DNA from: a virus
Length of the DNA stretch: 64,000 nucleotides
Virus record (IMG/VR): IMGVR_UViG_3300034137_000024
Span: 17,491-81,490 of that record
Strand: one strand, 5' to 3'
Position numbers and translations under genes: made by a program. Positions 3,892 through 49,122 of the stretch are shown one piece after another. Within the stretch, counting starts at the first letter, position 1; each line of letters begins with the position of its first letter. The notes beneath the pieces are model-generated. The model saw only the letters and a program-made list of their open reading frames with translations, searched no databases and was not told the DNA's origin.

Positions 3892-4290
3892 ATGATTCAG
3901 ATTGCCCGGTACCGGCACAGCAAACAGTTCAAATCGGGCCTGCCGGCGATTGTCGGGCCGCGCTCTTACACCAACGCCCAGCGTCGCTGGCAGGCGCGTA
4001 TTTCGGTCAACGTCCCGACCAGGCGAATCGAGATTCACGACCAGGACTTACAGGCCGTCGACACCGGCGGCGTCTTCACTGTGCCCGACTCGCCCGTCGC
4101 GCTGGTGTACGAGAACAGGCCCGAGCAGAGCATGACCGTGAATATCGGCGTTCTGAGCTACTCGCAGGCCTGCGAGGTCATCGCCGATCAGATGCAGGAG
4201 CTGCTCCGCGAGTGTCCGGACTGGACGGACTTTGAATGGCAGGTCTGGACGGAAAAGGGCAAGGCCCCGAAGGTTCGGAGGGCAGGATGA
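3892..4290 (+). CDS. Hypothetical phage protein
   Basis: In operon; MIQIARYRH... Confidence 0.65.
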   Translation: MIQIARYRHSKQFKSGLPAIVGPRSYTNAQRRWQARISVNVPTRRIEIHDQDLQAVDTGGVFTVPDSPVALVYENRPEQSMTVNIGVLSYSQACEVIADQMQELLRECPDWTDFEWQVWTEKGKAPKVRRAG

Positions 4291-4466
4291 AGATCGAGGA
4301 AGACATCTGGGAGTGGCGCCCCGCTGGCAAGGCCTGTACAGGCAAGCACGTCTGGGTAGTATTCCTGAGCCACCGTATCCGTGAGTGCTGCGACTGTGGC
4401 GCCCGGGAGGATCTGCGGGCCGACTTTGGCATCGGCCCCCGGATCCCCAAGTCTAAAGCAGCATGA
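4287..4466 (+). CDS. Small Cys/His protein (59 aa)
   Basis: ATGA overlap; C..KH.W...RECCDCG. Confidence 0.55.
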   Translation: MKIEEDIWEWRPAGKACTGKHVWVVFLSHRIRECCDCGAREDLRADFGIGPRIPKSKAA

Positions 4467-4475
4467 CCAAGTTCC

Positions 4476-4949
4476 TCAAGGCGATGCCATCGCGGAGTTG
4501 AATGCGTTTTGCACAGCTTGGGAAGCGTATTTATTCGAGTCGTGCCCTATGTCGTTGACTTCCCCAAGGTCGGAAATCCCAACAAACTTTTTCTCGGCAT
4601 CGCCAACGTCGCGTTGGCGCACTGTCCAATGGGCTCTCCCCCGAACATCCCGATCCTCATGCCCACCTTGAGCACATGGTGTACCCCATCCTTGGCGGGT
4701 GTATTTGCCCGAGTAATTTGCATAAATATCTGCATTCTTGCCGCTGATAGTGACATCGACGCTGTTGATGGTGATATCCGCACGAAACGTATCGCCCGGG
4801 CAGCCTAGAAGCGTCTTCTGTCGACCGTCGTATGAGGCTGATCCAGTTCGATGCGTTAATCGATCCTTCACAGAATCCTCTGCGTCGGTCGCAAAGATGG
4901 GCAGGGAAATAGTCGACAGCAGCAGAAGCGCACATGCGAGCGTTTTCAT
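4476..4949 (-). CDS. Secreted protein of unknown function (moron)
   Basis: MKTLACALLLLSTISLPIFA signal peptide; lower GC. Confidence 0.7.
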   Translation of the reverse strand: MKTLACALLLLSTISLPIFATDAEDSVKDRLTHRTGSASYDGRQKTLLGCPGDTFRADITINSVDVTISGKNADIYANYSGKYTRQGWGTPCAQGGHEDRDVRGRAHWTVRQRDVGDAEKKFVGISDLGEVNDIGHDSNKYASQAVQNAFNSAMASP

Positions 4950-5139
4950 GGTGTGAACCTTTTTTATGAGATAGTCCTGCGCATTGCGCGTCCTGGTCAC
5001 ATCTCAATTCGGCTCAGCCTCCCGCACAGCGCCCATCAAGTATTGTCGAGAACTGGGATTTTGCTCCGGATACATGACAAAGCCGGCATCGCTGCCGGCT
5101 CTATTTGTTGCTCAACCGCCCCTCAAGCCCCCCTGTAAG

Positions 5140-8034
5140 TCAGAACGGATCATCCCCATCGGGATCGTCGCCCAGAATCGGCATCAGCGGCACCATCACC
5201 GTCTTGGACTTGGCGCCGTTGAACGAAACGGCCTTGTCGCCTTTGGTCGCTTCTTTCACCCGGGTCAGCTGGTTGCGTAGATCCGTGATCGAGGACAGGT
5301 CGCGTACCAGGGATTTCAGATTGGGCACGCTGGTGCCGAACACCAGCACTTTTCTACCGTGGTCCGCGATGATTCCGTGCCGGCGCAACGTGTCCTCAGC
5401 CGTCACTACGTCCACTTTGTTCTGCCGGTGGATTGGGCTGGTCTCGCGCACCAGTTCATAGATCGTCAGATCCGACAGGCCGGAGCCCATGCGTACCTTG
5501 GCGCTCAGCAGCGCGGTAAGCGCCTTGTCCGCCTCGTCCATATCCGCCTCTTCGCGGTGCTCGGACCAGTCGAAGTCTTTGATCATGGCCTCGGCTTCGG
5601 CTTCGGACGGGACATAGTCCTTTTTCAGGCACCAGCAGCCCGCCAGCAGCGTCCCGAACTGGTCGCCGTCCCGTTGCCGGTCGAAGTGCTTGGCCGCTAC
5701 GCGGCGAAACACCTTCACTGAACTGAGGATGACAGGCAGCAGGTTTAGAATACGGGCCATCAGGCGGCTGGCAATAACCGGGTCCTGATCAATAGAGTTT
5801 AGGTAAGCCTCGAGTTCGTCCCAGTTGTTGTTATCGCCGGCCTTCAAGCGCAGGACCGTCAGGCGGTCAATGTCGGCCTTGGTGGGCAGGTTGGTGTTAA
5901 CGGAGGACAGGCAGAACATCGATCGGATGTCGAAGCGCATGCCGCCACCCGTAGTGGTGCCCTTGTACGTCTTGGCCTGAGTTTCCGATGACGTCTGGCG
6001 GATCAGGCTCATGATGTTTTCCACCCGGTGCCGCTCTTTCTCGTCGTTGGACTCGAATTCGTCAATCATCACCGGCAGGGCGTCGCCGGCCAGCACCTGG
6101 CGCAGACCGGCCTCGGTCGAATTGCCCTGTGCATAGACGTTGGTGCCCCGAGTCAGCGCGCCGCAGAACTTCGCCTGCAGCGTAGTTTTACCGGTACCGG
6201 CGCTGCCAGTTAGCCAGATATGCGGTCGCCAGTTGAGCGCACCGCAGATCGGAGCGAGCATCACCCAGCCCGCCATCAGCGCAGCAGAGCCCGGCATCGT
6301 CCAGCGAGGCATCGTGGCCACGTACACCAAGTGCTCGCCTTCCTCGTTGGTCAGCGGTGATGCATGGGGGTTTGGCAACGCCTTGGCGCGGGTATACACG
6401 TAGCCAGACGTGATCTTGGTCAGGTCGACGCGCTGGCCGTCCACGGTTAGGAACGGCCCGTGGTGGTAGATCGCACGGCTGTCGTCGGTCCAGGCGCCCC
6501 GGCCGCGCACGCGGGTCGGATCGTAGATGCCCATGGAGTGTGCCCGGTGAAAGATCCACTCGGCGGCCATGACGTTGTCGACCTTGGCTGCGCCGCCCGC
6601 GGGGAAGTACTCCTGCCACCAGTTCAACGGCGCGTGCTCGATCAACCCCAGCACATTCATATCCCGGCGCTGCATGACCATTACCTGGCCCTTGGCGTGG
6701 TTGAACAGGTAGTAGTTGCCCCCGTCGTATCCCAGGATGGTGAAATACTTATTCTTGACCAGCTCGTCGTCGTCGTATCCGTCCACGGGGTCCATGCCCC
6801 CAGGCTCGGCCGGAGGCGGCGTGTCGTCGAAGGGTGGCTCATCCTCGGACGTGGCCAGCATTGCCGGGCCGTCTTCGAGGTCAACCTCCATCATCTGCGG
6901 GTGTTCTAGGGTCGCGTCCATCACCTGGTCATTTGCCGCGGCGATTTCGTCGACCAGAACGTGCTCCAGGGCGTCGAGGAAAATGTCGGCTACTTGCTCG
7001 AGGTCGGTTGCCGCGTGGTAGTCGTTAAAGTCGGTTGGCCCTATGCGCTTCACGCCCTTTTCGGTAATGGTGTCGTGCCCATGAGCATGGGTAAACGGCG
7101 GAAAAGCCAGACCGGCTGCTACCTGCTTGGCTGCGATCTTGCCGTAGTGAACGCCTGGGTTTTCAATCGGGGTGAGAGTCCACTGATCGTTATCCGCCGC
7201 GATGATGATAATCGCGTCAGCACGCCGCTCGCGGATGCTCTTGGCGACAGGCGCCAAGTTGCTGATGTCGAAGGTGACCAGCACACAGTGCCCGGTCGCC
7301 ATATGGATACTGGCCCCGGTCGCGTAGCCTTCGCAGATGATGAATACCGGGCGCTCGTTAACCATTTGCGGCTTGCCGATCGCGTGGAAGTTTCCGCGCT
7401 TGGCGCCGTATTTCAGATAGTCTTTTCGGCGTTTGAGAAAGTTCGAGTTGTCGGGGAGGATTGCCTGCAGGCTGTGGATCACGTTCTGCCGATCGCGGAT
7501 CGGTATCAGCAGCGCCCGATCGGACACCACGCTGACCTCGCCCGTCTCCTCGTTCAAGTACTCCCAGCGGCCAACGCGCAGGCCGAAGGCTTTGACGCCC
7601 TTCTCGCCCAGATAGGGATAGTCAGAATCGGTAGGTTCGTCAGTGGCAGCATTCCAGAGTGCGACCGCACGCTCGGCGGCCATGCGGTGACGTTCCTGCT
7701 CAGCGGTGATGCGGCGGCGCTCTTGGTCGGCCATTTTGGCCTTCCATTCCCGGCGCTCATCAAGCGACATCGGGCGGTGCTGGGACTTGTCAGTCCAGGA
7801 AAACTTCTCGTCTGGGTATCGGCGGTTACAGCCGAACATGCCCGCAGGCTTGCTGTCCAGGTGCAGGATGTACCAGCCCGACCGATCACTGGTAGCGTCG
7901 CCGGTGATATGAATTCGGTGGAGGTGGCCGTCGCCCAGGATAGGGTCTTGAGTCTCGAGGCCGTACATGCGCATTTCGGCGCAGAACTGATCTAGAGCGC
8001 GGCCGGGATCGGCTGCACTAGGGGATGTGCTCAT
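5140..8034 (-). CDS. DNA primase-helicase (Toprim plus C-terminal P-loop helicase)
   Basis: ICEGYATG and IAADND Toprim motifs; GSAGTGKTT Walker A, MIDEFE Walker B; SD before ATG 8034. Confidence 0.88.
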   Translation of the reverse strand: MSTSPSAADPGRALDQFCAEMRMYGLETQDPILGDGHLHRIHITGDATSDRSGWYILHLDSKPAGMFGCNRRYPDEKFSWTDKSQHRPMSLDERREWKAKMADQERRRITAEQERHRMAAERAVALWNAATDEPTDSDYPYLGEKGVKAFGLRVGRWEYLNEETGEVSVVSDRALLIPIRDRQNVIHSLQAILPDNSNFLKRRKDYLKYGAKRGNFHAIGKPQMVNERPVFIICEGYATGASIHMATGHCVLVTFDISNLAPVAKSIRERRADAIIIIAADNDQWTLTPIENPGVHYGKIAAKQVAAGLAFPPFTHAHGHDTITEKGVKRIGPTDFNDYHAATDLEQVADIFLDALEHVLVDEIAAANDQVMDATLEHPQMMEVDLEDGPAMLATSEDEPPFDDTPPPAEPGGMDPVDGYDDDELVKNKYFTILGYDGGNYYLFNHAKGQVMVMQRRDMNVLGLIEHAPLNWWQEYFPAGGAAKVDNVMAAEWIFHRAHSMGIYDPTRVRGRGAWTDDSRAIYHHGPFLTVDGQRVDLTKITSGYVYTRAKALPNPHASPLTNEEGEHLVYVATMPRWTMPGSAALMAGWVMLAPICGALNWRPHIWLTGSAGTGKTTLQAKFCGALTRGTNVYAQGNSTEAGLRQVLAGDALPVMIDEFESNDEKERHRVENIMSLIRQTSSETQAKTYKGTTTGGGMRFDIRSMFCLSSVNTNLPTKADIDRLTVLRLKAGDNNNWDELEAYLNSIDQDPVIASRLMARILNLLPVILSSVKVFRRVAAKHFDRQRDGDQFGTLLAGCWCLKKDYVPSEAEAEAMIKDFDWSEHREEADMDEADKALTALLSAKVRMGSGLSDLTIYELVRETSPIHRQNKVDVVTAEDTLRRHGIIADHGRKVLVFGTSVPNLKSLVRDLSSITDLRNQLTRVKEATKGDKAVSFNGAKSKTVMVPLMPILGDDPDGDDPF

Positions 8035-17371: not shown

Positions 17372-17829
17372 TGGGTAATCCAAAGGTGCAGGAAGGGGTA
17401 AGTTGCGGATTCGTTGCGACCGACCAGGTTGTTCTGGAAGCTGATCCGGTTAACAAAGGTGTATTGCCCAGGCGGGAGCGGTGGCACGGTGAAGCCGTAG
17501 CCGGTCTGGGCGCAGCCGCCGTCGATCTGGGACATGCTCACCGGCAAGGGAAAAACGAACCCCTTTGCGCTTTGCAACTCCGGGTAGCTGACCAAGACCT
17601 GGCTGTGGGTCGAGCAGGCTTTCCGATACACCACCGCCAAGTCGCCTGGGCGGAATTCCGATCGCGCCTGGCCCCCACCGTCGAACATGCCGACGTTGTT
17701 GATCGTCAGGGGGTTCCCGCCGGCGATGACCGACCAGCCAATGGCAATCTGGCCCAGGTAGATCGCCACCAGGTACAGAAGCGCCCAGACAAAGGCCCGA
17801 TTGTGCAGGTTCGATCGGAACGTCTTCAT
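17368..17829 (-). CDS. Membrane-anchored periplasmic protein in the lysis cassette
   Basis: N-terminal TM then beta-rich domain with two Cys. Confidence 0.7.
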   Translation of the reverse strand: MKTFRSNLHNRAFVWALLYLVAIYLGQIAIGWSVIAGGNPLTINNVGMFDGGGQARSEFRPGDLAVVYRKACSTHSQVLVSYPELQSAKGFVFPLPVSMSQIDGGCAQTGYGFTVPPLPPGQYTFVNRISFQNNLVGRNESATYPFLHLWITQ

Positions 17830-35312: not shown

Positions 35313-35359
35313 ATCGTCGTGTCACGACGCTGGCGGCTGTTTCATCGTGACAAGAAGAT
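35313..35359. promoter_or_regulatory. Divergent pair of late-type promoters, both leaderless
   Basis: (-) GTCGTGAC-AC-GACGAT 35328-35313, ATG 35306; (+) ATCGTGAC-AA-GAAGAT 35344-35359, ATG 35366. Confidence 0.75.
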
Positions 35360-40991: not shown

Positions 40992-41012
40992 CTAATGGGT
41001 GTCTCCGGTAAA

Positions 41013-41630
41013 TTAAATACGGGCCAGAACATCCGCCGGAATGGCGGTGCCGGACTGAATGGCGTTTTCTGCGCGAGCGACGTCGATGCCGCTGATCTTC
41101 CCGGCCTTCTGGGCGTCCAGGGCTTTAGCCAGAATCTCGGCCGGGGCCATCTGTGCGGGCTGGGATTTGCGCAAGGGCTGCTCGCCCGGGGCGGGCTTCT
41201 CGACGATTGCCAAGACGGTTTTGCGGCCGCGACCTTGGCCGGAGAGCTTCTCCAGCTGACCCTGCATCGATTTGAGAAGGGCGCCCTGCCCCTTGATGAG
41301 GTCGAGCATTGGGGTGATCGACTTAACCAGCATCTGGTCTTGGCCTTCGACGCGGTCGGCCAGTTCGTTGAGCGACTTAACCAGCTGCTCGGCATCGACC
41401 ACTTCGACGTTTTCGCCGTCGATGACCATGGATTTCTTGAGGTCAGCCGGGGCTACGCTTTCGTCGCCTTCGCCTTCACCCTTGCCTTTTGCGGCTGGGG
41501 CTTTCTCTTCTTCTTCCTCTTCTTCCTCGTCGTCGCCATCGCCGCCTTCGGCTGGCATGGATTTGGTGAGGGTGCTTTGTTCCGCTGCCAGGGCGTTAAT
41601 TTCGTCCAGCAGTTGGTCAAAATCGCTCAT
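41013..41630 (-). CDS. Capsid scaffolding protein
   Basis: Acidic helical protein with seven L-x-K-(S/A)-type motifs. Confidence 0.75.
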   Translation of the reverse strand: MSDFDQLLDEINALAAEQSTLTKSMPAEGGDGDDEEEEEEEEKAPAAKGKGEGEGDESVAPADLKKSMVIDGENVEVVDAEQLVKSLNELADRVEGQDQMLVKSITPMLDLIKGQGALLKSMQGQLEKLSGQGRGRKTVLAIVEKPAPGEQPLRKSQPAQMAPAEILAKALDAQKAGKISGIDVARAENAIQSGTAIPADVLARI

Positions 41631-42523
41631 TAAGAGCCTCGTTTCGTGAGTCTATTTTTCAAATCGCAAAGGAAGCGATTCACCCATTCAGTGGCCTCGT
41701 CTCCCGAGAGCCCGAATTGCTTGGTCGAATAGGCGATCAATCCCGCAGAGGTCTGAATCTTGGCGTCACGACCCCGCACGGCGGCCGACAGGCGATCGCG
41801 GAAGTCGAAGTAGGATTGAGGGATGCCGCCCATTGACTGAACGCGCAGGGCACTGCCGCCGGTGAGCGTTGCCGAGTCGGTGCCGTAACCGGCATCCAGC
41901 GACTTGAGGAACGCAAACCCGTTCGGGGTCCAGCTTTTCGCCAGCGCTCCGAAAGGAACGGTGGCAATACCGCTGACATGCTGGTTAACCGGCTGTTGAG
42001 AAATGCCGATGTTCGTCCAGCGGACCTTGCTGACAACGCCGATCTTCTGGCCAGTTTTGGGGTCCGTTTGAACCGATTTCGCCAGAACGGCACCACCTAC
42101 GCTGGGGTACCAGCGGCGTGGAGGGTTCAGCTGAGTCATCGACTCCCAAACTTGGTTTGCGCGCTCGGCCATAGGCGTGTCGCCCTTGTACAAGCGCGCT
42201 TTGACGAAGGTTGAGGCGCCCTTGACCACCACCTCATCGGGTACACCGATCTCCCAGAGCTCTGGTTGCGTGATGCCGTGGGCTTTAGCAACGGAGGGCA
42301 TCGACATATGGTTGATGTCAATGTTCCCGTAGCGAAGGAAGGTCTCGGCCGAGTCTTCAAGGGCCTTTGCCAGCACGATCTCGTCTTGCTGGTCACGGGC
42401 CTCGCGGGACGCTTCCAAGTAAATAAAGCGCTCGCCTTTCTCTTCACTGGGGCGCGCTTTGAACATGCCCTCAATGCTGAGGAAGTCGGGGATATGGGCC
42501 AGTAGGCTTTCGTCTTGATTCAT
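41630..42523 (-). CDS. Prohead protease
   Basis: AS.E.RDQQ.EIV, GNI..NH, SVGG; between portal and capsid genes. Confidence 0.82.
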   Translation of the reverse strand: MNQDESLLAHIPDFLSIEGMFKARPSEEKGERFIYLEASREARDQQDEIVLAKALEDSAETFLRYGNIDINHMSMPSVAKAHGITQPELWEIGVPDEVVVKGASTFVKARLYKGDTPMAERANQVWESMTQLNPPRRWYPSVGGAVLAKSVQTDPKTGQKIGVVSKVRWTNIGISQQPVNQHVSGIATVPFGALAKSWTPNGFAFLKSLDAGYGTDSATLTGGSALRVQSMGGIPQSYFDFRDRLSAAVRGRDAKIQTSAGLIAYSTKQFGLSGDEATEWVNRFLCDLKNRLTKRGS

Positions 42524-42530
42524 GGCGCCC

Positions 42531-42610
42531 AGTCTGTTGTCACGACTAGGGCACCGGCCCAGAGGGCTGCGGGGTGCAATTCACGGTTTGAGCGGTCGTG
42601 ACGCGAGGAT
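42531..42610. promoter_or_regulatory. Divergent pair of late-type promoters
   Basis: (-) GTCGTGAC-AA-CAGACT 42546-42531, ATG 7 nt later; (+) GTCGTGAC-GC-GAGGAT 42595-42610. Confidence 0.75.
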
Positions 42611-42642
42611 CACGACATCCCAAGCCTTAGAAATTCCCCCTA

Positions 42643-43302
42643 ATGGAAAGCAACCAATCATCCAAAGTCTGTCCATGCTGCAAGCAGGACAAACCTCTTG
42701 ACCAATTTGGGCGCTTGCGCGACGGCTACCAGCCCCGCTGCAAGCAATGCCGGAATGACCAACGAAAAGCCCGTTACAACGAGAACCGCGAAAAGGAACT
42801 GACCTGGCGCGCCCAGTACGTGACTAACAACCCGGACAAGTGCGCCGCCTATTCCAAGGAGTGGCGAGCCAAAAACCCGGAAAAAGCACGGTCGAAGTCC
42901 CGCGACTATTACCACCGCCATAAGGAGCAGTACCGCCAGCACGCGCTGCGCCTGAGTCGCGAAGCCTGCCGCACGCTGGCCGACAGCTACGTGCGCAAGG
43001 TCATCGCGTCCTTGGTTGGCTACGATGGCCACGAAATCACCCAGGTCGAGATCGAGCACGCCCGTCAGCGAATCCACGACAAGCGCAATGGCGTTGTCAC
43101 CCGCAAGGGGGCGTCCGACCAACGCCAGACGAATCGCGCATATCTGGCCACGGACCGCGCCGAGCTGTCCGACAGCTACGTGCGCCGCCTTATCCAGGCG
43201 TCGAAGGACTACCAGGGCGGCACGATCACCGTCGAGATGATCGAGCAGGCCCGCCAGCGGATCCTGGACAAACGGGACAGGCGGAAGCAGCGCGCCGAGT
43301 GA
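42643..43302 (+). CDS. Zinc-finger protein with duplicated C-terminal domain
   Basis: CPCCK..K....F...RCKQC; two L.DSYVR...IE.ARQRI.DKR repeats; no HNH catalytic motif. Confidence 0.75.
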   Translation: MESNQSSKVCPCCKQDKPLDQFGRLRDGYQPRCKQCRNDQRKARYNENREKELTWRAQYVTNNPDKCAAYSKEWRAKNPEKARSKSRDYYHRHKEQYRQHALRLSREACRTLADSYVRKVIASLVGYDGHEITQVEIEHARQRIHDKRNGVVTRKGASDQRQTNRAYLATDRAELSDSYVRRLIQASKDYQGGTITVEMIEQARQRILDKRDRRKQRAE

Positions 43303-43307
43303 CCATG

Positions 43308-43338
43308 AAAAGCCGCCCTACTGGGCGGCTTTGTTTTT
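43308..43338. terminator. Bidirectional terminator
   Basis: AAAAGCCGCCC-tact-GGGCGGCTTT between convergent genes. Confidence 0.8.
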
Positions 43339-43490
43339 GCTGATCGATTTGTCCAGTTCGTCCAAGGGGTGCCCCAGACCATCCTCGAACGCCTTGATAA
43401 TGGCCTCCATGTACGGGTCTTCGTCGCCCGGACAGGCGAACAAGCACCGATAAATGGCCCAGAACCACAGGCAGAACAGGATGTAGCCGA

Positions 43491-44168
43491 TCATTTGTCG
43501 GCAGCCTCGAGCACGCTGGTGACCTTATCGACCACCAGTCGGCCGCCGATCTTAACGCTCTGGTATTCCAACTTGGTGTACCACTGACCATCCGACTCGA
43601 TGTAGCACTCCCACCACTCATAGTGGCCTTCCAGATGCTTATTTTTGGCATAGAAGTGACAGCTCAGTGCGCCCGCCGGGTAGGTGAAGAGGTACACCAG
43701 GAATCCGACCAGGACAGGGATAATCATCCCTTTCAGCGCCGTCAGCAGGCCTCCAATGATTGCCTGGCGAAGGTTCGATTCGGTGTTGGTTGCGGTTTCG
43801 TTCATCGCGTTGCGTTTCCTCAGAAAATCAATAACGGCTCGGTTGTATTGGGCTTCAATCTCCACATCACCCCGGGCGATCGCCCCGGCCAAGCGATGCA
43901 CCCCATCCTCCACCCACAGGTAAGGCTCGCCAGAGGGCGTGCGATGCACGCGCACCTGAAGGGGAGTCTTGTCGCTGCTCAGGTAGAAAAATGCAGCCCG
44001 GCGCGTGTGAAGTGCCACGTCGGTGTGGTCCTCGCTGGGCTGCAACTGCTCGTACTTGATCTTGCGAGCGGTTGCGTAGGCGATAACCTCGTCCACCAGA
44101 AGGGGGCGCGATTGCCCCCAAACGGCGATGTCATAAGGGGATGGCAGGACGCCAACAGGGAGTTTCAT
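43491..44168 (-). CDS. ParB/Srx-like domain fused to a membrane domain
   Basis: VEDGVHRLAGA; TM segment; internal SD plus ATG at 43805. Confidence 0.65.
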   Translation of the reverse strand: MKLPVGVLPSPYDIAVWGQSRPLLVDEVIAYATARKIKYEQLQPSEDHTDVALHTRRAAFFYLSSDKTPLQVRVHRTPSGEPYLWVEDGVHRLAGAIARGDVEIEAQYNRAVIDFLRKRNAMNETATNTESNLRQAIIGGLLTALKGMIIPVLVGFLVYLFTYPAGALSCHFYAKNKHLEGHYEWWECYIESDGQWYTKLEYQSVKIGGRLVVDKVTSVLEAADK

Positions 44169-44197
44169 GGTCGTGGGTACCGAAGCGGGAAGCCCCC

Positions 44198-44213
44198 AGC
44201 TTGTTGTCACGAC
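44198..44213 (-). promoter_or_regulatory. Late-type promoter GTCGTGAC-AA-CAAGCT
   Basis: Intergenic consensus match. Confidence 0.7.
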
Positions 44214-44239
44214 CAACCAGTAACTGGCGGTAATTCCGG

Positions 44240-45382
44240 TCAGTTACCGGACAGCACTTTTTGCAGATACGCCCCAAATTCGGGGTCGTCACCCTCTAAA
44301 ATCTCCATCACAGCGACCCAGAACCCTCGACAGTTCGGGTGCGCCAGACCAGCAGGCAGGTGCCAAAGTTCGGCCTCTGTGCGCGGTACCAGTTCGTCAC
44401 CCACGCGCTTGCGCGGCGCCGCCGATCGGCCAATGTTGTTTTTCCCGGGCCAAACCATGGTCTCGCCGTCCTTGTCCGGAGCGTCGGCCGCCACAACAGT
44501 GGCCACCCGGCCATGAATTCGCTTGCAGAACGCGCAAGCGGTCTCGTACTGCTCGACGCGCTTAACCTTGGTGCCTGGCTTGAGGCTGGCAATGAAACCT
44601 TGGGTCTGGCATTCGCCGGCCTCGGTGACTGCGATTCGGCGCCAGTCGCGATTAAGGCTGGCGAAGTCGTCGAAAAGCTCGGTTTCAAGCGACGGTAACT
44701 GCCCGGTGGTTTCCGCCAGTTCCAGCTGCTGCATCACGGTCTGGCGCAACTGGTGGCGGGCCTTGTCGGTCAGGGCGCGCACGTTTTCACCGGCGCGCAC
44801 CTCGGCAAACTCCATGGCCGACTTTTGCTGCTTGGATAGATCGAACTGACTGGCAGCCGCCTCCGGCGTCGACGGCAGTGCAGCCAGGATCTTGTCAGCG
44901 TTCTGGGGCGTTACCAGTTTGGCGTCCAGATTTGCCTGGACCTTGCCCATCAGCACCGCCCGAGTCGCCAGCCACTGGGCCTCGGTCTTGAGCTCCTCCG
45001 CTGGCAAGTAGCGCTGCACGACGTAATCGACCGCCATCATGTGGTCCTTGACTCCCCACTTACCCGGCGGCAGCGCTTCCAGGTACAGCTTGACCAGAGA
45101 AAGCTCGTCGTCCGTCCAGCGCACCATCATCCCAGGCGCAGTGGAGGGTTTCGCGTCAGGGTTGTGGTGCTTGCCTTGCTGCCAGGCGGAAAGCTGCGTC
45201 TTGACGTGCTCCAGGCGATCGAGACCGCGCTTTGTGAACAGTTCGATTAGGCGCCGGATGAGCACGGACTCATGGGCGTCCCAAATACCGGCCCCCCGAT
45301 CACCACGGGCGGCGGACTTGTAGATGAACTCCAAGGCGTCATCGGTTGCCAGGGGGCTCAGTAGTTGCAGGTCTATGTACAT
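44240..45382 (-). CDS. Head morphogenesis protein (MuF/SPP1 gp7-like)
   Basis: RDWRRIAVTE, ACAFC, HPNCRG.W; next to the portal. Confidence 0.8.
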   Translation of the reverse strand: MYIDLQLLSPLATDDALEFIYKSAARGDRGAGIWDAHESVLIRRLIELFTKRGLDRLEHVKTQLSAWQQGKHHNPDAKPSTAPGMMVRWTDDELSLVKLYLEALPPGKWGVKDHMMAVDYVVQRYLPAEELKTEAQWLATRAVLMGKVQANLDAKLVTPQNADKILAALPSTPEAAASQFDLSKQQKSAMEFAEVRAGENVRALTDKARHQLRQTVMQQLELAETTGQLPSLETELFDDFASLNRDWRRIAVTEAGECQTQGFIASLKPGTKVKRVEQYETACAFCKRIHGRVATVVAADAPDKDGETMVWPGKNNIGRSAAPRKRVGDELVPRTEAELWHLPAGLAHPNCRGFWVAVMEILEGDDPEFGAYLQKVLSGN

Positions 45383-45405
45383 CGGCGCGATCCAGATCCG
45401 GGGCC

Positions 45406-45615
45406 AAAAAAAAGCCCGACCGTTATGACCCGGCCGGGCTTGGGTGCTTCGATCCGACTACCACGACGAACGTGGCTCAAAGCTGCGGGGTTGCTATGCC
45501 TTCCGTACTGCGTTACCGCAGCCGTCTCCCGAGCAGGGCGGGCTGATAAGTGTCCCAGAGGATTAACCCCCTCTGGCCCGGTAAGGCTTCCCGGGATCGT
45601 TGGGCCGTCTTGCTA
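45406..45615 (-). ncRNA. Candidate structured RNA / attenuator between portal and MuF genes
   Basis: ATG-free on - strand, five hairpins, motif variant upstream (45622-45637), intrinsic terminator 45406-45441. Confidence 0.45.
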
Positions 45616-45652
45616 CAGGCAATTAGGCTGTCACGACCTGAGCCTGCGCCAT

Positions 45653-47350
45653 CTAAACCACGACCCGGAGCGCGGGCAAGCCGAAGGATTTCGCCAGAGC
45701 ATCGGCATCATCACCATCAACGACTGGGTCATCATCGGCGCTCTGGTCCTTGGCCTTGCTCACCTTGTCGACTGCCGCGTCAGCCGGTGGCGGTTGGTCC
45801 TGCTCGTCTCCACCAGGTGCGTCATCGGCGCCAGCCTGCATTTCGCCCTGGAACACGCCCATCAGTGACGGATTGAGCGGAGCCTCGCCCCAGCTGGCCT
45901 TTGTTTCGTCCCAGCCGTTGGCTTTGCGGCCTTCGTTGACCGAAAGCAGTTTCTGCTGCTTGTCCCAGACAACCTGCTCGTTGGCCTCGTCCAGACCGGT
46001 CCAGCGGAACACATAGTCGGGCGAGAAGTCCGCCACGATGAAGTCACTGAAAACGTCCTCGAAGTGCGCCAGCAGCGGCCGCAGGCCTTTGTCCTTGGAG
46101 TTGATCAGCTTCTCTTCGGTATCGCTGCCGCTGAGCGAGCTGGTTCCCGCCGTGAACGATTCAAAGTTGATCTCGTCCGGAGCCATGCCGTAGATCGCGC
46201 AGATGATCGACGTCAGAAACGTCATCCACTTGGCGAACATGATCTCGTTCACGTCAACGCCGAATTTCTCGAAGGCCGCCCGGGACTCTTGGTCCTTGGA
46301 CACCAGGACGGGCATCTGCCAGGAGTTGTTGACGCCTTTAACCATCGCGTTCCAGTAGCGCTTGAAGTTGTTCAAGTCGTTCTGGTCGTAATTGCCGTTG
46401 AGGTGCAGCAGGCCCTTTGGTATGGCGTTGCTGTCGAAATACTTGGTGTTGTAGGTGAAGGCGTTTAGATAGCCGGTGACGACCCGAATCAGCAGCTCGG
46501 TCTCCGACATGCCGTAGCCACCATAAACCACGTCCGTACGCGGATTGCGCGGCACGTAGATCATATCGTCATGGGTATAGGCGGTGCGGATCTGCCCATC
46601 AACCACCTGCAGGGCGAAAATCTCGTCGTCACCCTCATAACCGACCTCGCTGCACAGTCGAACGGTGGCCCCGTCGACGGCGTAGAACCCGTCCATGCCA
46701 CGGCGTTTGTCGCGCTTGAATTCGGTCTCGATTGGCGCACTGTCCATGATCAGGCTGTCGCGGCTGAGCTTCGCCATAAAGGTCGAGAAGTTGTCCCGCT
46801 TGAGCTTGAGACGTGCCCGGGGGTTCGATTCCCAGCCGCAGTTTGTAAAGAAGCCCTCCAGCAACTGGATCGCCTTGAGCTGATCGGCCCCCTGCGGCTT
46901 TGAGGAGTCTTTCTGGCGGATGGCGAAGCCTGGCCCCTTGCCGTTTTCCTGGACGCGGCAAAAGCGTTTTATCTGACGTTGACGGGTCAGGATCACCGAA
47001 CCGAGGATTGGAGTTTGATCGACCATGGTGCGCATGGTGTCGAAGGAAAATGCACTGGGCCGATCATAATAGTCACCCATGGCCTGGACACGATGGTCGT
47101 CCAGCCACACCGACTGCATGCCCGGCTCACCGCGCCGAACGGCGGGACTTGGGAATGGCGCCGCCTGGGGGCGCGTCAAGGATTTTTGAAACTCCTGCTC
47201 TTGATACTGCCGCTGGACGAATTCGACCAGGGGCAACATATCCGGGACCGAGGAAGGCATTGCCGACTGCTGAGCGACACGCATGGCGTCGTCTCGCTCG
47301 TCTTGCGGCGCTGCGGGGTTATGGGCGGTTTGGAGGGCAATGTCAGTCAT
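45653..47350 (-). CDS. Portal protein
   Basis: 565 aa; DG.TVR, YVPRNPR.D...YG.SE.E, N.IPKGLL, VNEGR. Confidence 0.9.
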   Translation of the reverse strand: MTDIALQTAHNPAAPQDERDDAMRVAQQSAMPSSVPDMLPLVEFVQRQYQEQEFQKSLTRPQAAPFPSPAVRRGEPGMQSVWLDDHRVQAMGDYYDRPSAFSFDTMRTMVDQTPILGSVILTRQRQIKRFCRVQENGKGPGFAIRQKDSSKPQGADQLKAIQLLEGFFTNCGWESNPRARLKLKRDNFSTFMAKLSRDSLIMDSAPIETEFKRDKRRGMDGFYAVDGATVRLCSEVGYEGDDEIFALQVVDGQIRTAYTHDDMIYVPRNPRTDVVYGGYGMSETELLIRVVTGYLNAFTYNTKYFDSNAIPKGLLHLNGNYDQNDLNNFKRYWNAMVKGVNNSWQMPVLVSKDQESRAAFEKFGVDVNEIMFAKWMTFLTSIICAIYGMAPDEINFESFTAGTSSLSGSDTEEKLINSKDKGLRPLLAHFEDVFSDFIVADFSPDYVFRWTGLDEANEQVVWDKQQKLLSVNEGRKANGWDETKASWGEAPLNPSLMGVFQGEMQAGADDAPGGDEQDQPPPADAAVDKVSKAKDQSADDDPVVDGDDADALAKSFGLPALRVVV

Positions 47351-47356
47351 GTGGTG

Positions 47357-47409
47357 AGCATGGCGTCACGACGCCCCCGGTACGGCCCCGGCCGTCGTGA
47401 CGACAGGCT
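47357..47409. promoter_or_regulatory. Divergent pair of late-type promoters (portal / dUTPase)
   Basis: (-) GTCGTGAC-GC-CATGCT 47372-47357, ATG 6 nt later; (+) GTCGTGAC-GA-CAGGCT 47394-47409. Confidence 0.75.
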
Positions 47410-47440
47410 AGGCGGAATTTCCCAAACGAGATATCCCGTC

Positions 47441-48106
47441 GTGTTCAGTGTTTTCGAGAAGCAACTGCGTGCCCACTTCGTTCAATCCATTCACGCCGCG
47501 GGCCTGAGCCTCAGCCTCGACACCTTCCCCAGAAGCGGTGAATTCAACGACCCTGTCACCGCCTATATGTATCAAGGGTATGCCTTGCGGGCCAAGGAAT
47601 ATGGGCTGCAACCAGCGGTAACCATCCGCAACCACCCGCAACCGATACTCAAGGTGAAGAAGCTTCACCGCGACGCACAAATGCCTGTCTACGCAACGCC
47701 GGGGGCTGCCTGCTTCGACATCAGCGCAGTGGTCGACGATCCAGAAGGCATTCATGTGCGACCAGGCGTCGCCGCGATTATCGACACCGGGCTCGCGTTC
47801 GAGGTGCCCGAGGGGTGGGTACTCAAGGTGTACTCGCGCAGCGGCATGGGCTTCGGCCACGGTGTACGGCTGGCCAACTGCGTTGGAATCATCGACAGCG
47901 ATTTTCGCGGCGAACTGAAGATCAAGCTGGCCTGTGACCGCGACCAGATCGCCGAGAACTGGAGCTGCAATGGTTTTTCGGTGAATACCGGAAAACGCAT
48001 CGCCCAAGCAATGCTGGTACCCGCGCCACAATTCCCGATCCTAGAGGCCGTGGAACTGGCGGTAACTACCCGTGGTTCCGATGGGTTTGGAAGCACAGGC
48101 GCATAG
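47441..48106 (+). CDS. dut: dUTPase with about 65-aa N-terminal extension
   Basis: ACFD, RSG, GIIDSDFRGE, RIAQ, RG..GFGSTG; start codon uncertain. Confidence 0.9.
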   Translation: MFSVFEKQLRAHFVQSIHAAGLSLSLDTFPRSGEFNDPVTAYMYQGYALRAKEYGLQPAVTIRNHPQPILKVKKLHRDAQMPVYATPGAACFDISAVVDDPEGIHVRPGVAAIIDTGLAFEVPEGWVLKVYSRSGMGFGHGVRLANCVGIIDSDFRGELKIKLACDRDQIAENWSCNGFSVNTGKRIAQAMLVPAPQFPILEAVELAVTTRGSDGFGSTGA

Positions 48107-48122
48107 GTCGTGACCGCAAAGT
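48107..48122 (+). promoter_or_regulatory. Late-type promoter GTCGTGAC-CG-CAAAGT facing non-coding DNA
   Basis: Consensus match right after the dut stop codon. Confidence 0.6.
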
Positions 48123-48128
48123 TCATCC

Positions 48129-48400
48129 ATTGCCGCGCATGACATTGTCAGCAAGCGCCCCGGAAGCGGTCACCGGGAACAGATGACACGGTGAGACCCT
48201 AGCCGGGAGGGCCGCAGCAGCGGATGGTCCGGATGAGGATAAGCGAATGGTGCCTCAGCAGAAAAAACCAGCGCAGCATGGCCACGGAAAACTAAGCCTT
48301 ACTCCTGCCGGGGGCCATCCTGAAAGCTGATAGACCTGACGCATCTGGGCGACGGGGTCAGCAGACAGGTCGCTGACGGCGGGAAAGACCGCACTCCCCT
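48129..48400 (+). ncRNA. Candidate structured RNA
   Basis: No ORF of 60 aa or more, several stems, shares elements with 45406-45615. Confidence 0.45.
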
Positions 48401-48864
48401 CCTCCTTGCGCATGACGCAACGGCGACTGCAAGCCCCTGAATATGAACGAAAGTTAATAGCGCCTATCAGCGATGTTCATTTGACATCACGATCACGACT
48501 TGAGCAAAAAAATAGTTCAAAAATGTTCAAGTTTGCGATCCATTTGTGTCGTTCTTGTTGTAACGTCAGCCCACCGGGAAACAATCGCAAGTGCGCGATT
48601 ATTCTCGGGGTTTTGTAAAGAAACCGTACATTGGCTGATGTTTTTCTTACAAGATCGACACAAAGTAGCGTGCTAAAGCAGATTTCAGATACAAGTTAGA
48701 AAGCACGGGTAAATTTTGGGAAATGAAAGCTGTACCAACCACTCAAGACATTGATTGCTGAGCCGACCGCCACCGGCCCAGCAGCGAAACGCCGACCAGT
48801 TATGACCAGGTCTACGCTTCAACCAATAGTCGCCGCAGTTGCACCTCTAGGAAAGGAAGTGTTC

Positions 48865-49122
48865 ATGAACGAAAAAAGCATGGCGCGTTTTTTAGGCTTG
48901 GCCCCAAAAGCACAACCTACCGCCGTTACACGCGGGCTCGTTGTTGTTATGTCAGTACGCAAGGGTGGTGTCGGCCCGATTCTGCGATACACCCACCCTA
49001 CCAACACCATCAGCCGCCTCGAGGCGCAAATCGAGGCTCAGCAGGCAGCCAGAAGGGAAGGCCTGACGTTCTGGACCCTCCTCGACATCTCTCCACCTGA
49101 TCAAGTTGCCGTCGCGATGTAA
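48865..49122 (+). CDS. Hypothetical protein
   Basis: SD AGGAAAGGA before MNEKSMARF; AT-rich upstream region. Confidence 0.6.
   Translation: MNEKSMARFLGLAPKAQPTAVTRGLVVVMSVRKGGVGPILRYTHPTNTISRLEAQIEAQQAARREGLTFWTLLDISPPDQVAVAM

Follow-up and report, generated by a model that had tools for sequence, protein, structure and literature searches.

An uncatalogued structured RNA in the late gene clusters of three phage lineages

Results

A folded RNA in the gap downstream of a portal gene

The 270-nt gap between the portal gene and the next gene of the soil phage studied here holds what is, judged by comparison with its relatives, almost certainly a real and conserved structured RNA, and this RNA belongs to a new family in that it matches no family in Rfam. 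The DNA analyzed (the window) is a 64,000-nt stretch, positions 17,491 to 81,490 of IMG/VR record IMGVR_UViG_3300034137_000024, and coordinates without a locus name refer to that stretch. On balance we favor the reading that positions 45616-45406 of its minus strand are the gene for a ~210-nt structured non-coding RNA of an uncatalogued family, a self-contained module found in late (virion or lysis) gene clusters of at least three phage lineages, whose function lies in the folded RNA itself.

The gap is on the minus strand and separates the portal gene (45653-47350) from a 380-aa open reading frame (44240-45382), both of which lie outside the RNA. A first-pass annotation of this DNA, made from the letters alone, had described the gap as a hairpin-packed and ATG-free segment next to a portal gene; the sense strand of 45383-45650 does lack an ATG, the upstream gene is a portal gene by its Pfam match (Phage_portal, E = 2.9e-19), and the four hairpins and the terminator listed in that annotation were all found. 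The folding energy of the gap (MFE -115.2 kcal/mol) is not significant by itself (z = -1.77; 10 of 200 shuffles were equally good), so the support for the reality of the RNA is comparative.

The fold

Read 5' to 3' on the minus strand, the RNA begins with S1, a GCCC strand (45605-45602) that pairs with GGGU (45569-45566) in the loop of hairpin H2 to make pseudoknot 1. Next is hairpin P1 (45595-45577), CCCGG and CCGGG around a 9-nt loop that bears GCCUU (45587-45583), the 5' strand of a long-range helix. H2 (45576-45555) has 7 bp and a loop that reads GGGTTAAT in the window and is conserved as GGGYUAAR. It is followed by H3 (45542-45528; CCCG and CGGG with a 7-nt loop) and by H4 (45524-45504), which has one bulge and a GNRA tetraloop (GUAA; the GTAA-loop hairpin had been noted before at 45521-45508). 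The 3' strand of the long-range helix, AAGGC (45502-45498), pairs with GCCUU, and this pairing crosses P1 and pseudoknot 1. A linker (45497-45484) ends in a near-invariant (G/C)CGCAGC box, kept in all three subfamilies (below), whose final two bases, G45483 and C45482, are the first pairs of H5. The 3' domain (45483-45446) consists of the 7-bp H5 (45483-45477 with 45452-45446), the 5-bp H6 (45476-45460, within which a stem had been noted at 45475-45461) and a conserved 7-nt bulge (45459-45453) that is AGUCGGA in the window and AGUCGNA as the family consensus. H3, the long-range helix, the pairing of S1 with the H2 loop and the outer helix H5 had been overlooked in the first-pass annotation. 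Two further ideas about the fold were dropped. One was that the purine-rich linker makes a third tertiary pairing with the U-rich junction of H2 and H3, where no more than 67% of cells pair. The other was a tRNA-like reading of the 3' domain (7 + 5 bp and an "ACC" tail), in which the bulge falls on the wrong side and the tail lacks conservation.

The main family of RNAs

With the portal protein we pulled 62 portal-relative loci from IMG/VR, mostly on ~90-kb contigs, in which the distance from the portal gene to the next gene ranges from 222 nt to >3.8 kb. Blastn is nearly blind to the RNA, finding no match to the region in 50,697 phage records and matches to the gap in only three of the relatives' loci (L001, L002 and L018), so that the family is visible solely to a structure-aware search. 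When the window was aligned with L001, L034 and L002 the hairpin stems differed and the loops were kept, and these four sequences were used to build covariance model R1. Twenty-nine of the 62 loci have a single strong match to R1, in every case 3' of the portal gene and on the same strand as it. R1 also matched six phages that have names, Touem01, Dolphis, Jeremy, ST4, fHe-Yen8-01 and phiT5282EW; a seventh, ECML-606-1, has an identical copy of the RNA by blastn. Fifteen whole records have a match; 14 of them have one per genome, as does the fifteenth, G011 (the contig of L010), in the one search that covered it whole, and three of the copies in whole records sit up to ~10 kb beyond the portal gene. 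With R1 the score of the window itself is 222.6 bits, and with a second model, R2, it is 96.8 bits, which indicates consistency only, since the window is among the source sequences of both; the two models match the window at 45400-45612 only. It has the features by which we propose to recognize the family, namely the S1/H2-loop pairing, the pairing of the P1 loop with a downstream strand, the CGCAGC linker, H5/H6, an AGUCNNA-type bulge and a place on the sense strand of a late operon.

The RNA is borne by most of the PHB04/Dolphis-like ~90-kb myoviruses. Searches of whole records showed it to be absent from PHB04, Mecenats66, G002, G003 and G013, and because the first four of these do without it the RNA is dispensable for the lineage. 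The enterobacterial member of the family, used as a blastn query, had no match in 5,426 E. coli genomes, and the RNA is described in no paper that we found. Phage genomes are usually annotated as wall-to-wall protein genes, and the site of the RNA is blank in all seven named carriers, which are cultured phages. Over the RNA of Touem01 (L067:7438-7658, plus strand) runs an antisense "hypothetical protein" frame, XAI70580.1 (7401-7646, minus strand), which is probably a spurious gene call.

With respect to known RNAs, no Rfam 15 family reaches its gathering threshold in 45383-45652 when searched with Infernal, a check that the first-pass annotation had proposed. When 45200-45850 was searched at E values up to 10 there were only sub-threshold matches driven by the terminator (NsiR1 at 20.8 bits against a threshold of 39, SorX at 17.7 against 46.6). 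Six relatives, subfamily 2 included, match only a tRNA in Rfam, and ARAGORN finds no tRNA or tmRNA anywhere in the window. The whole window has a single match at the gathering threshold, to RF03044, which is located elsewhere (below).

Covariation

To avoid circularity, 25 5' domains were aligned by MAFFT alone, with no fitting to a model. RNAalifold run on this alignment predicted the long-range helix enclosing H2, H3 and H4, with compensatory changes in 20 of its 21 pairs. When the full structure was counted on the same alignment, nested pairs and the two crossing pairings alike, standard pairs made up 87.1% of cells (70.3% in shuffles), 26 of the 30 pairs had changed on both sides, and the covariation score was 0.54, as against 0.22 in shuffles (none of 500 reached it) and at most 0.18 when the partner strands were slid. 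The first-pass annotation had named covariation across relatives as a check of its candidate, and it is present. Conserved G-U pairs are plentiful (for example, in 20 of 21 sequences at one pair of H6), and since these would be A-C mismatches on the other strand the structure reads on the sense strand only, as expected for an RNA.

The individual helices are supported as follows: H2 is paired in 98% of cells with double changes in 6 of its 7 pairs, and H3 in 92% with all four pairs covarying. H4, which RNAalifold found on the MAFFT alignment, is paired in 81-94% of cells, and all of its pairs covary. The long-range helix is paired in 94% of cells, with 5 of 5 pairs covarying on the unfitted alignment, and its variants include GCCUG/CAGGC, GUCUG/CAGAC, GCUGU/ACAGC, GUCCA/UGGAU and GGUCA/UGACC. 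P1 can be seen by eye in every member and 4 of its 5 pairs covary; it is paired in only 61-75% of aligned cells because its register shifts. Pseudoknot 1 is paired in 93% of cells on MAFFT alignment A6. It has support across the family in that subfamily 2 exchanges both strands (CCGCC with GGCGG instead of GCCC with GGGY) and in that L031, L072 and L020, in which the H2 loop is swapped for a tetraloop, have lost the S1 strand as well, so that both partners are gone together. H5 and H6 are paired in 91-93% of cells with covariation on the model-fitted alignment, and MAFFT plus alifold recovered them from 3 main-family sequences and from the 9 of subfamily 2.

A predicted promoter and terminator

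The motif GTCGTGAC occurs 20 times in the window where 2.7 copies are expected (none of 100 shuffles reached 20), and a looser form of it occurs 9 times where 1.9 are expected. Copies of it stand ahead of several genes, among them those for the portal (motif at 47372-47365), the protease (42546-42539) and the terminase (51732-51725). There the last base of the hexamer that follows the motif is 6-7 nt from the start codon, a spacing which suggests that the late mRNAs are leaderless. One copy is directed into the gap on the minus strand, where, as had been claimed, GTCGTGAC (45637-45630) is followed by AG and CCTAAT (45627-45622); the same spacing applied to this copy predicts a transcript that starts near 45616-45614 and runs ~210 nt to the terminal U8. 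The motif also precedes the homologous RNA in about ten relative loci of the main family (L001, L034, L006, L011, L013-L016 and L067 among them), 4-10 nt before the first conserved strand. At two sites in the window, 47365-47401 and 35321-35350, motifs of this type stand back to back as divergent pairs 22-24 nt apart, which suggests that they are compact bidirectional promoter regions.

The predicted intrinsic terminator (45439-45406) has a 9-bp G+C-rich stem (45439-45431 with 45422-45414), an 8-nt loop and a U8 tract (45413-45406) that ends 23 nt before the ATG at 45382. It has the form of a Rho-independent terminator, a G+C-rich stem-loop directly followed by a U-run, and in our terminator scan (11 pairs counted, 8 of them G-C, with an 8-nt loop and T8) it had the top score within 41000-49000; terminator-like sites in the scanned region are at chance level (9 found, 8.8 expected). 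In the main family a clear hairpin and U-run follow the RNA in about 9 of 27 members, comparable ones being those of L001, L008, L012, L026, L029, L044, L067 and L213 (G001), and many other members have none.

The RNA of the window is by its sequence a complete unit of promoter motif, fold and predicted terminator. The suggestion in the first-pass annotation of a roughly 210-nt late small RNA fits the enrichment of the motif, its position ahead of the RNA in relatives, the strong terminator and the covarying structure that lies between them, and it is quite likely that this phage makes a discrete ~210-nt transcript from the predicted promoter to the predicted terminator.

The downstream gene

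The gene downstream had been labeled MuF, and this label found no support, as the 380-aa protein has no sequence match in Pfam, PHROG or the PDB; its homologues are annotated "particle associated protein" in Yersinia phage fHe-Yen8-01 and "putative minor head protein" in Mecenats66. There is no copy of GTCGTGAC between the terminator and its ATG, so its transcription should have to read through the U8 terminator, from either the RNA promoter or the portal promoter. The next copy on the minus strand (44213-44206) is right after its stop codon, which would make it the only gene in its transcription unit behind the terminator. In the transcription map of the head module this virion-protein gene would therefore depend on read-through of the RNA terminator.

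Is the RNA then an attenuator that rations the "MuF" protein, as had also been proposed? In a weak and local sense it may be, given the motif-less 380-aa gene behind the terminator, but across the family it is not a dedicated attenuator, because the U-tract is missing in many relatives, leaderless promoters or tRNA genes intervene, and the genes beside the RNA are different in two lineages. There is no conserved expression platform, the U-run terminator of about 9 of 27 main-family members being absent in the third context described below, and no consistent class of downstream gene, since what lies beyond the RNA may be a virion-protein gene, tRNA genes, a leaderless promoter, an antisense integrase gene or a tail terminator gene. 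We noted no conserved antiterminator or alternative pairing between the fold and the terminator stem, by eye only. The pattern across the family argues that any attenuation of the 380-aa gene would be a local arrangement rather than the conserved purpose of the fold.

Gene neighborhoods in the main family

Both promoter motif and terminator are present in the window, L001 and L067. In main-family members other than the ten or so with the motif, the start of the RNA is at, or falls inside, the stop codon of a ~100-aa conserved reading frame that is absent from the window. In general a stop codon precedes the first strand of the RNA by 0-15 nt, and 11-60 nt often separate the last helix from the next start. 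On the 3' side, a leaderless promoter serves the 380-aa gene alone in L001, L007, L020, L026, L029 and L072, and in L007, L020 and L026 tRNA genes lie between that gene and the RNA. The RNA stays beside the 380-aa gene even where 10 kb have been inserted after the portal gene.

The portal-to-next-gene interval (L001-L062, L065, L067 and L213) is an insertion hot spot of 222 nt to about 10 kb. Its contents include tRNA-Met and tRNA-Gly genes in some relatives, a GDSL lipase gene in Touem01, and in PHB04 a (p)ppGpp synthetase/hydrolase-like gene and a Ser/Thr phosphatase gene. The inserts land upstream of the RNA, which remains near the 380-aa gene. In most relatives (L005:4593-4943, L009:2633-2941, L012:2019-2339 and about 50 other loci) the portal gene is followed directly by that of the ~100-aa protein (GDEVFFHxxGxPxxGKV...HK.KW...YVGIPPEAR), and the first strand of the RNA often overlaps the stop codon of the latter gene. 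In PHB04 the protein matches within the N-terminal part of a larger annotated frame. It has no significant Pfam match and no PHROG match, and as an obligate partner of the RNA it was rejected, since the window lacks it and elsewhere it occurs apart from the RNA.

Two other genomic contexts

Pattern scans together with R1 uncovered two further contexts. Subfamily 2 comprises 11 loci with 9 distinct sequences (L078 and L215 are identical, as are L214 and L217 in the stretch that they share); nine of the loci are viral and two are on Polaromonas and Limnohabitans MAG contigs, and the temperate-phage contigs are ~18-41 kb long. These carriers are ~40-kb temperate phages of Comamonadaceae in which the RNA follows the lysis genes. 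In the four loci whose flanks were searched (L077, L080, L193 and L210) the last lysis gene stops within a few nt of the start of the RNA and the integrase gene converges on the RNA from the other side, and in G007 a tRNA-Ser gene follows it. In L210, the Limnohabitans contig, the integrase frame (4155-5291, plus strand) and the RNA (5247-5435, minus strand) overlap at their 3' ends by about 45 nt, so late read-through there would be antisense to int.

The third context consists of four viral contigs, L300, L301, L310 and L312 (4.7 kb and 34-51 kb), with myovirus-type tail genes. In L312, the one whose flanks were identified, the order is a Neck1 gene, a head protein gene (phrog_939), the RNA and the tail terminator gene, with the tail sheath gene farther downstream; the other three share its flanking sequences. 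The terminal hairpin is missing altogether in these four copies. Whatever the context, the RNA has the orientation of the late genes, and the structural-gene modules of the three carrier lineages have no detectable protein similarity to one another; identity among the RNAs in primary sequence is low.

Discussion

What might such an RNA do? Its fold is kept where the promoter, the terminator or the downstream gene differs, so the conserved role would be the RNA's own, and we lean toward a free-standing function, in trans or self-contained, over cis control of a particular gene. The RNA would be made late in infection, as a primary transcript that runs from the GTCGTGAC promoter to the U8 tract and also as the 3' end of portal transcripts, and its terminator would incidentally limit read-through into the 380-aa virion-protein gene. 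Most likely the folded RNA would persist as a stable particle and, late in infection, bind a host or phage protein or small ligand; control of one particular neighbor gene seems less likely than such a job in the folded RNA. Persistence of the fold in three lineages, always in late operons, points to an unrecognized RNA-level activity in virion production or host takeover. Two observations count against a stand-alone role: the RNA nearly always fills a tight space between two late cistrons, which would also suit a cis-acting intercistronic element, and in the main family it remains next to the same 380-aa gene. A search for a partner protein by phyletic pattern, in which the reading frames of the whole 84.6-kb genome of this phage were compared by tblastn with 10 RNA-bearing relatives, 4 RNA-free relatives and 4 subfamily-2 genomes, gave none: only shadow frames and clade-specific genes separate RNA-bearing from RNA-free genomes, and nothing specific is held in common with subfamily 2. 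This test is weak because the RNA-free genomes are also the most distant ones.

The main alternative, itself rather unlikely, is that the RNA is an intercistronic cis element of the late polycistronic mRNA, a processing, stability or insulation module and possibly a self-cleaving ribozyme, that would part the cistrons on its two sides or stabilize them to different degrees and in this way set the ratios of late proteins. Its invariable place on the sense strand inside late operons, the tight packing between a stop codon and the next start, and the many members with no promoter or terminator of their own all agree with this, and the crossing of the two long-range pairings in the order 1-2-1'-2' is reminiscent, by analogy, of the nested double pseudoknots of HDV-like ribozymes. 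Simple hairpins suffice, however, for known bacterial mRNA stabilizers, and conserved loops and a conserved bulge such as those found here are more typical of specific recognition; moreover, the subfamily-2 RNA ends its operon with only an antisense integrase gene beyond it, the RNAs of the window, L001 and L067 are full promoter-to-terminator units, and no ribozyme model in Rfam is matched at E values up to 10. Improbable, too, is the idea that the RNA is a new functional class, either a self-cleaving ribozyme or a high-copy late sponge or decoy for a host factor or a defense signal, that moves horizontally between the late operons of unrelated phages.

We consider it distinctly improbable that the fold is a riboswitch-type or protein-dependent attenuator that senses a ligand or a virion protein, gates the terminator at 45439-45406 and so rations the 380-aa protein. 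The order of parts in the window (promoter, structured RNA, strong terminator, gene with no promoter motif) is what such a device would have, the RNA adjoins the 380-aa gene across the main family, and its conserved unpaired nucleotides could form a binding pocket. Against this stand the features of relatives described above: most members are missing the U-tract and the four contigs of the third context the terminal hairpin, a leaderless promoter or tRNA genes intervene in several relatives, two lineages place the RNA beside unrelated genes, and no conserved alternative pairing of the fold with the terminator stem was noted by eye. That the gap is a DNA-level signal (a packaging site, an origin or a single-stranded DNA structure) or a set of chance hairpins in a G+C-rich spacer is extremely improbable, for the z-score of only -1.77, the chance-level count of terminator-like sites and a portal-adjacent position that invites the idea of packaging are outweighed by compensatory changes in 26 of 30 pairs on an unfitted alignment, conserved G-U pairs that would be A-C mismatches on the other strand, an orientation that is always sense, and a fold kept across three lineages with little primary-sequence identity.

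Comparison with known RNAs

The arrangement in the window recalls that of phage lambda, in which the late promoter pR' gives the short, terminated 6S RNA transcript that ends at tR' and is followed by the late genes: the window likewise has a predicted late-type promoter, a ~200-nt transcript and a strong terminator before a late gene that would need read-through. Lambda 6S RNA is not known to have an intricate conserved structure, and its terminator is passed with the help of Q, which acts at the promoter; in the RNA described here the fold is the conserved part, and the promoter and the terminator vary from member to member. Transcriptional riboswitches and leader-terminator attenuators share with the window, L001 and L067 a complex conserved fold followed by a terminator and then a gene, but our RNA has no fixed class of downstream gene, and most members have no terminator.

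HDV-like ribozymes, which cleave themselves at a specific site, are nested double pseudoknots (P1/P2) with P1.1, P3/L3 and a catalytic C, and the two long-range pairings of this RNA cross in the same 1-2-1'-2' order with hairpins between them. The likeness is one of topology only: no HDV-type model in Rfam is matched, and the second strand of pairing 1 is in a hairpin loop rather than after P3. The pRNA of phi29, a packaging RNA bound to the portal, is likewise a structured phage RNA of about 120-200 nt, and the main-family RNA adjoins the portal gene; it differs in that Phage_pRNA of Rfam has no match here and in that adjacency to the portal gene is lost in the two other contexts. VIPR vrRNAs, which are arrays of 10-12 GGYNN units with a 40-60 nt tail, are also phage-borne solo RNAs with a pseudoknotted part and often no adjacent protein gene (bioRxiv 10.64898/2026.10.15.759431). 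Identity with them was rejected, as the RNA has at most 2 GGYNN units in a row and neither strand of the window has as many as 4.

The window itself carries another such RNA. A Proteo-phage-1 RNA (RF03044; 50 bits against a threshold of 42) is at 48197-48278 on the plus strand, about 80 nt downstream of a copy of GTCGTGAC (48107-48114), and because it too stands behind the motif this phage should have at least two motif-driven structured RNA genes that flank the portal gene. The two are alike in being phage-borne, covariation-supported orphan RNAs with GTCGTGAC ahead of them, and they are 2.6 kb apart. They are different RNAs, as RF03044 has no match in 45383-45652 and R1 finds one site in the window, and the RNA described here is larger and has two crossing long-range pairings. 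In kind it resembles the orphan "ornate" RNA motifs of phages.
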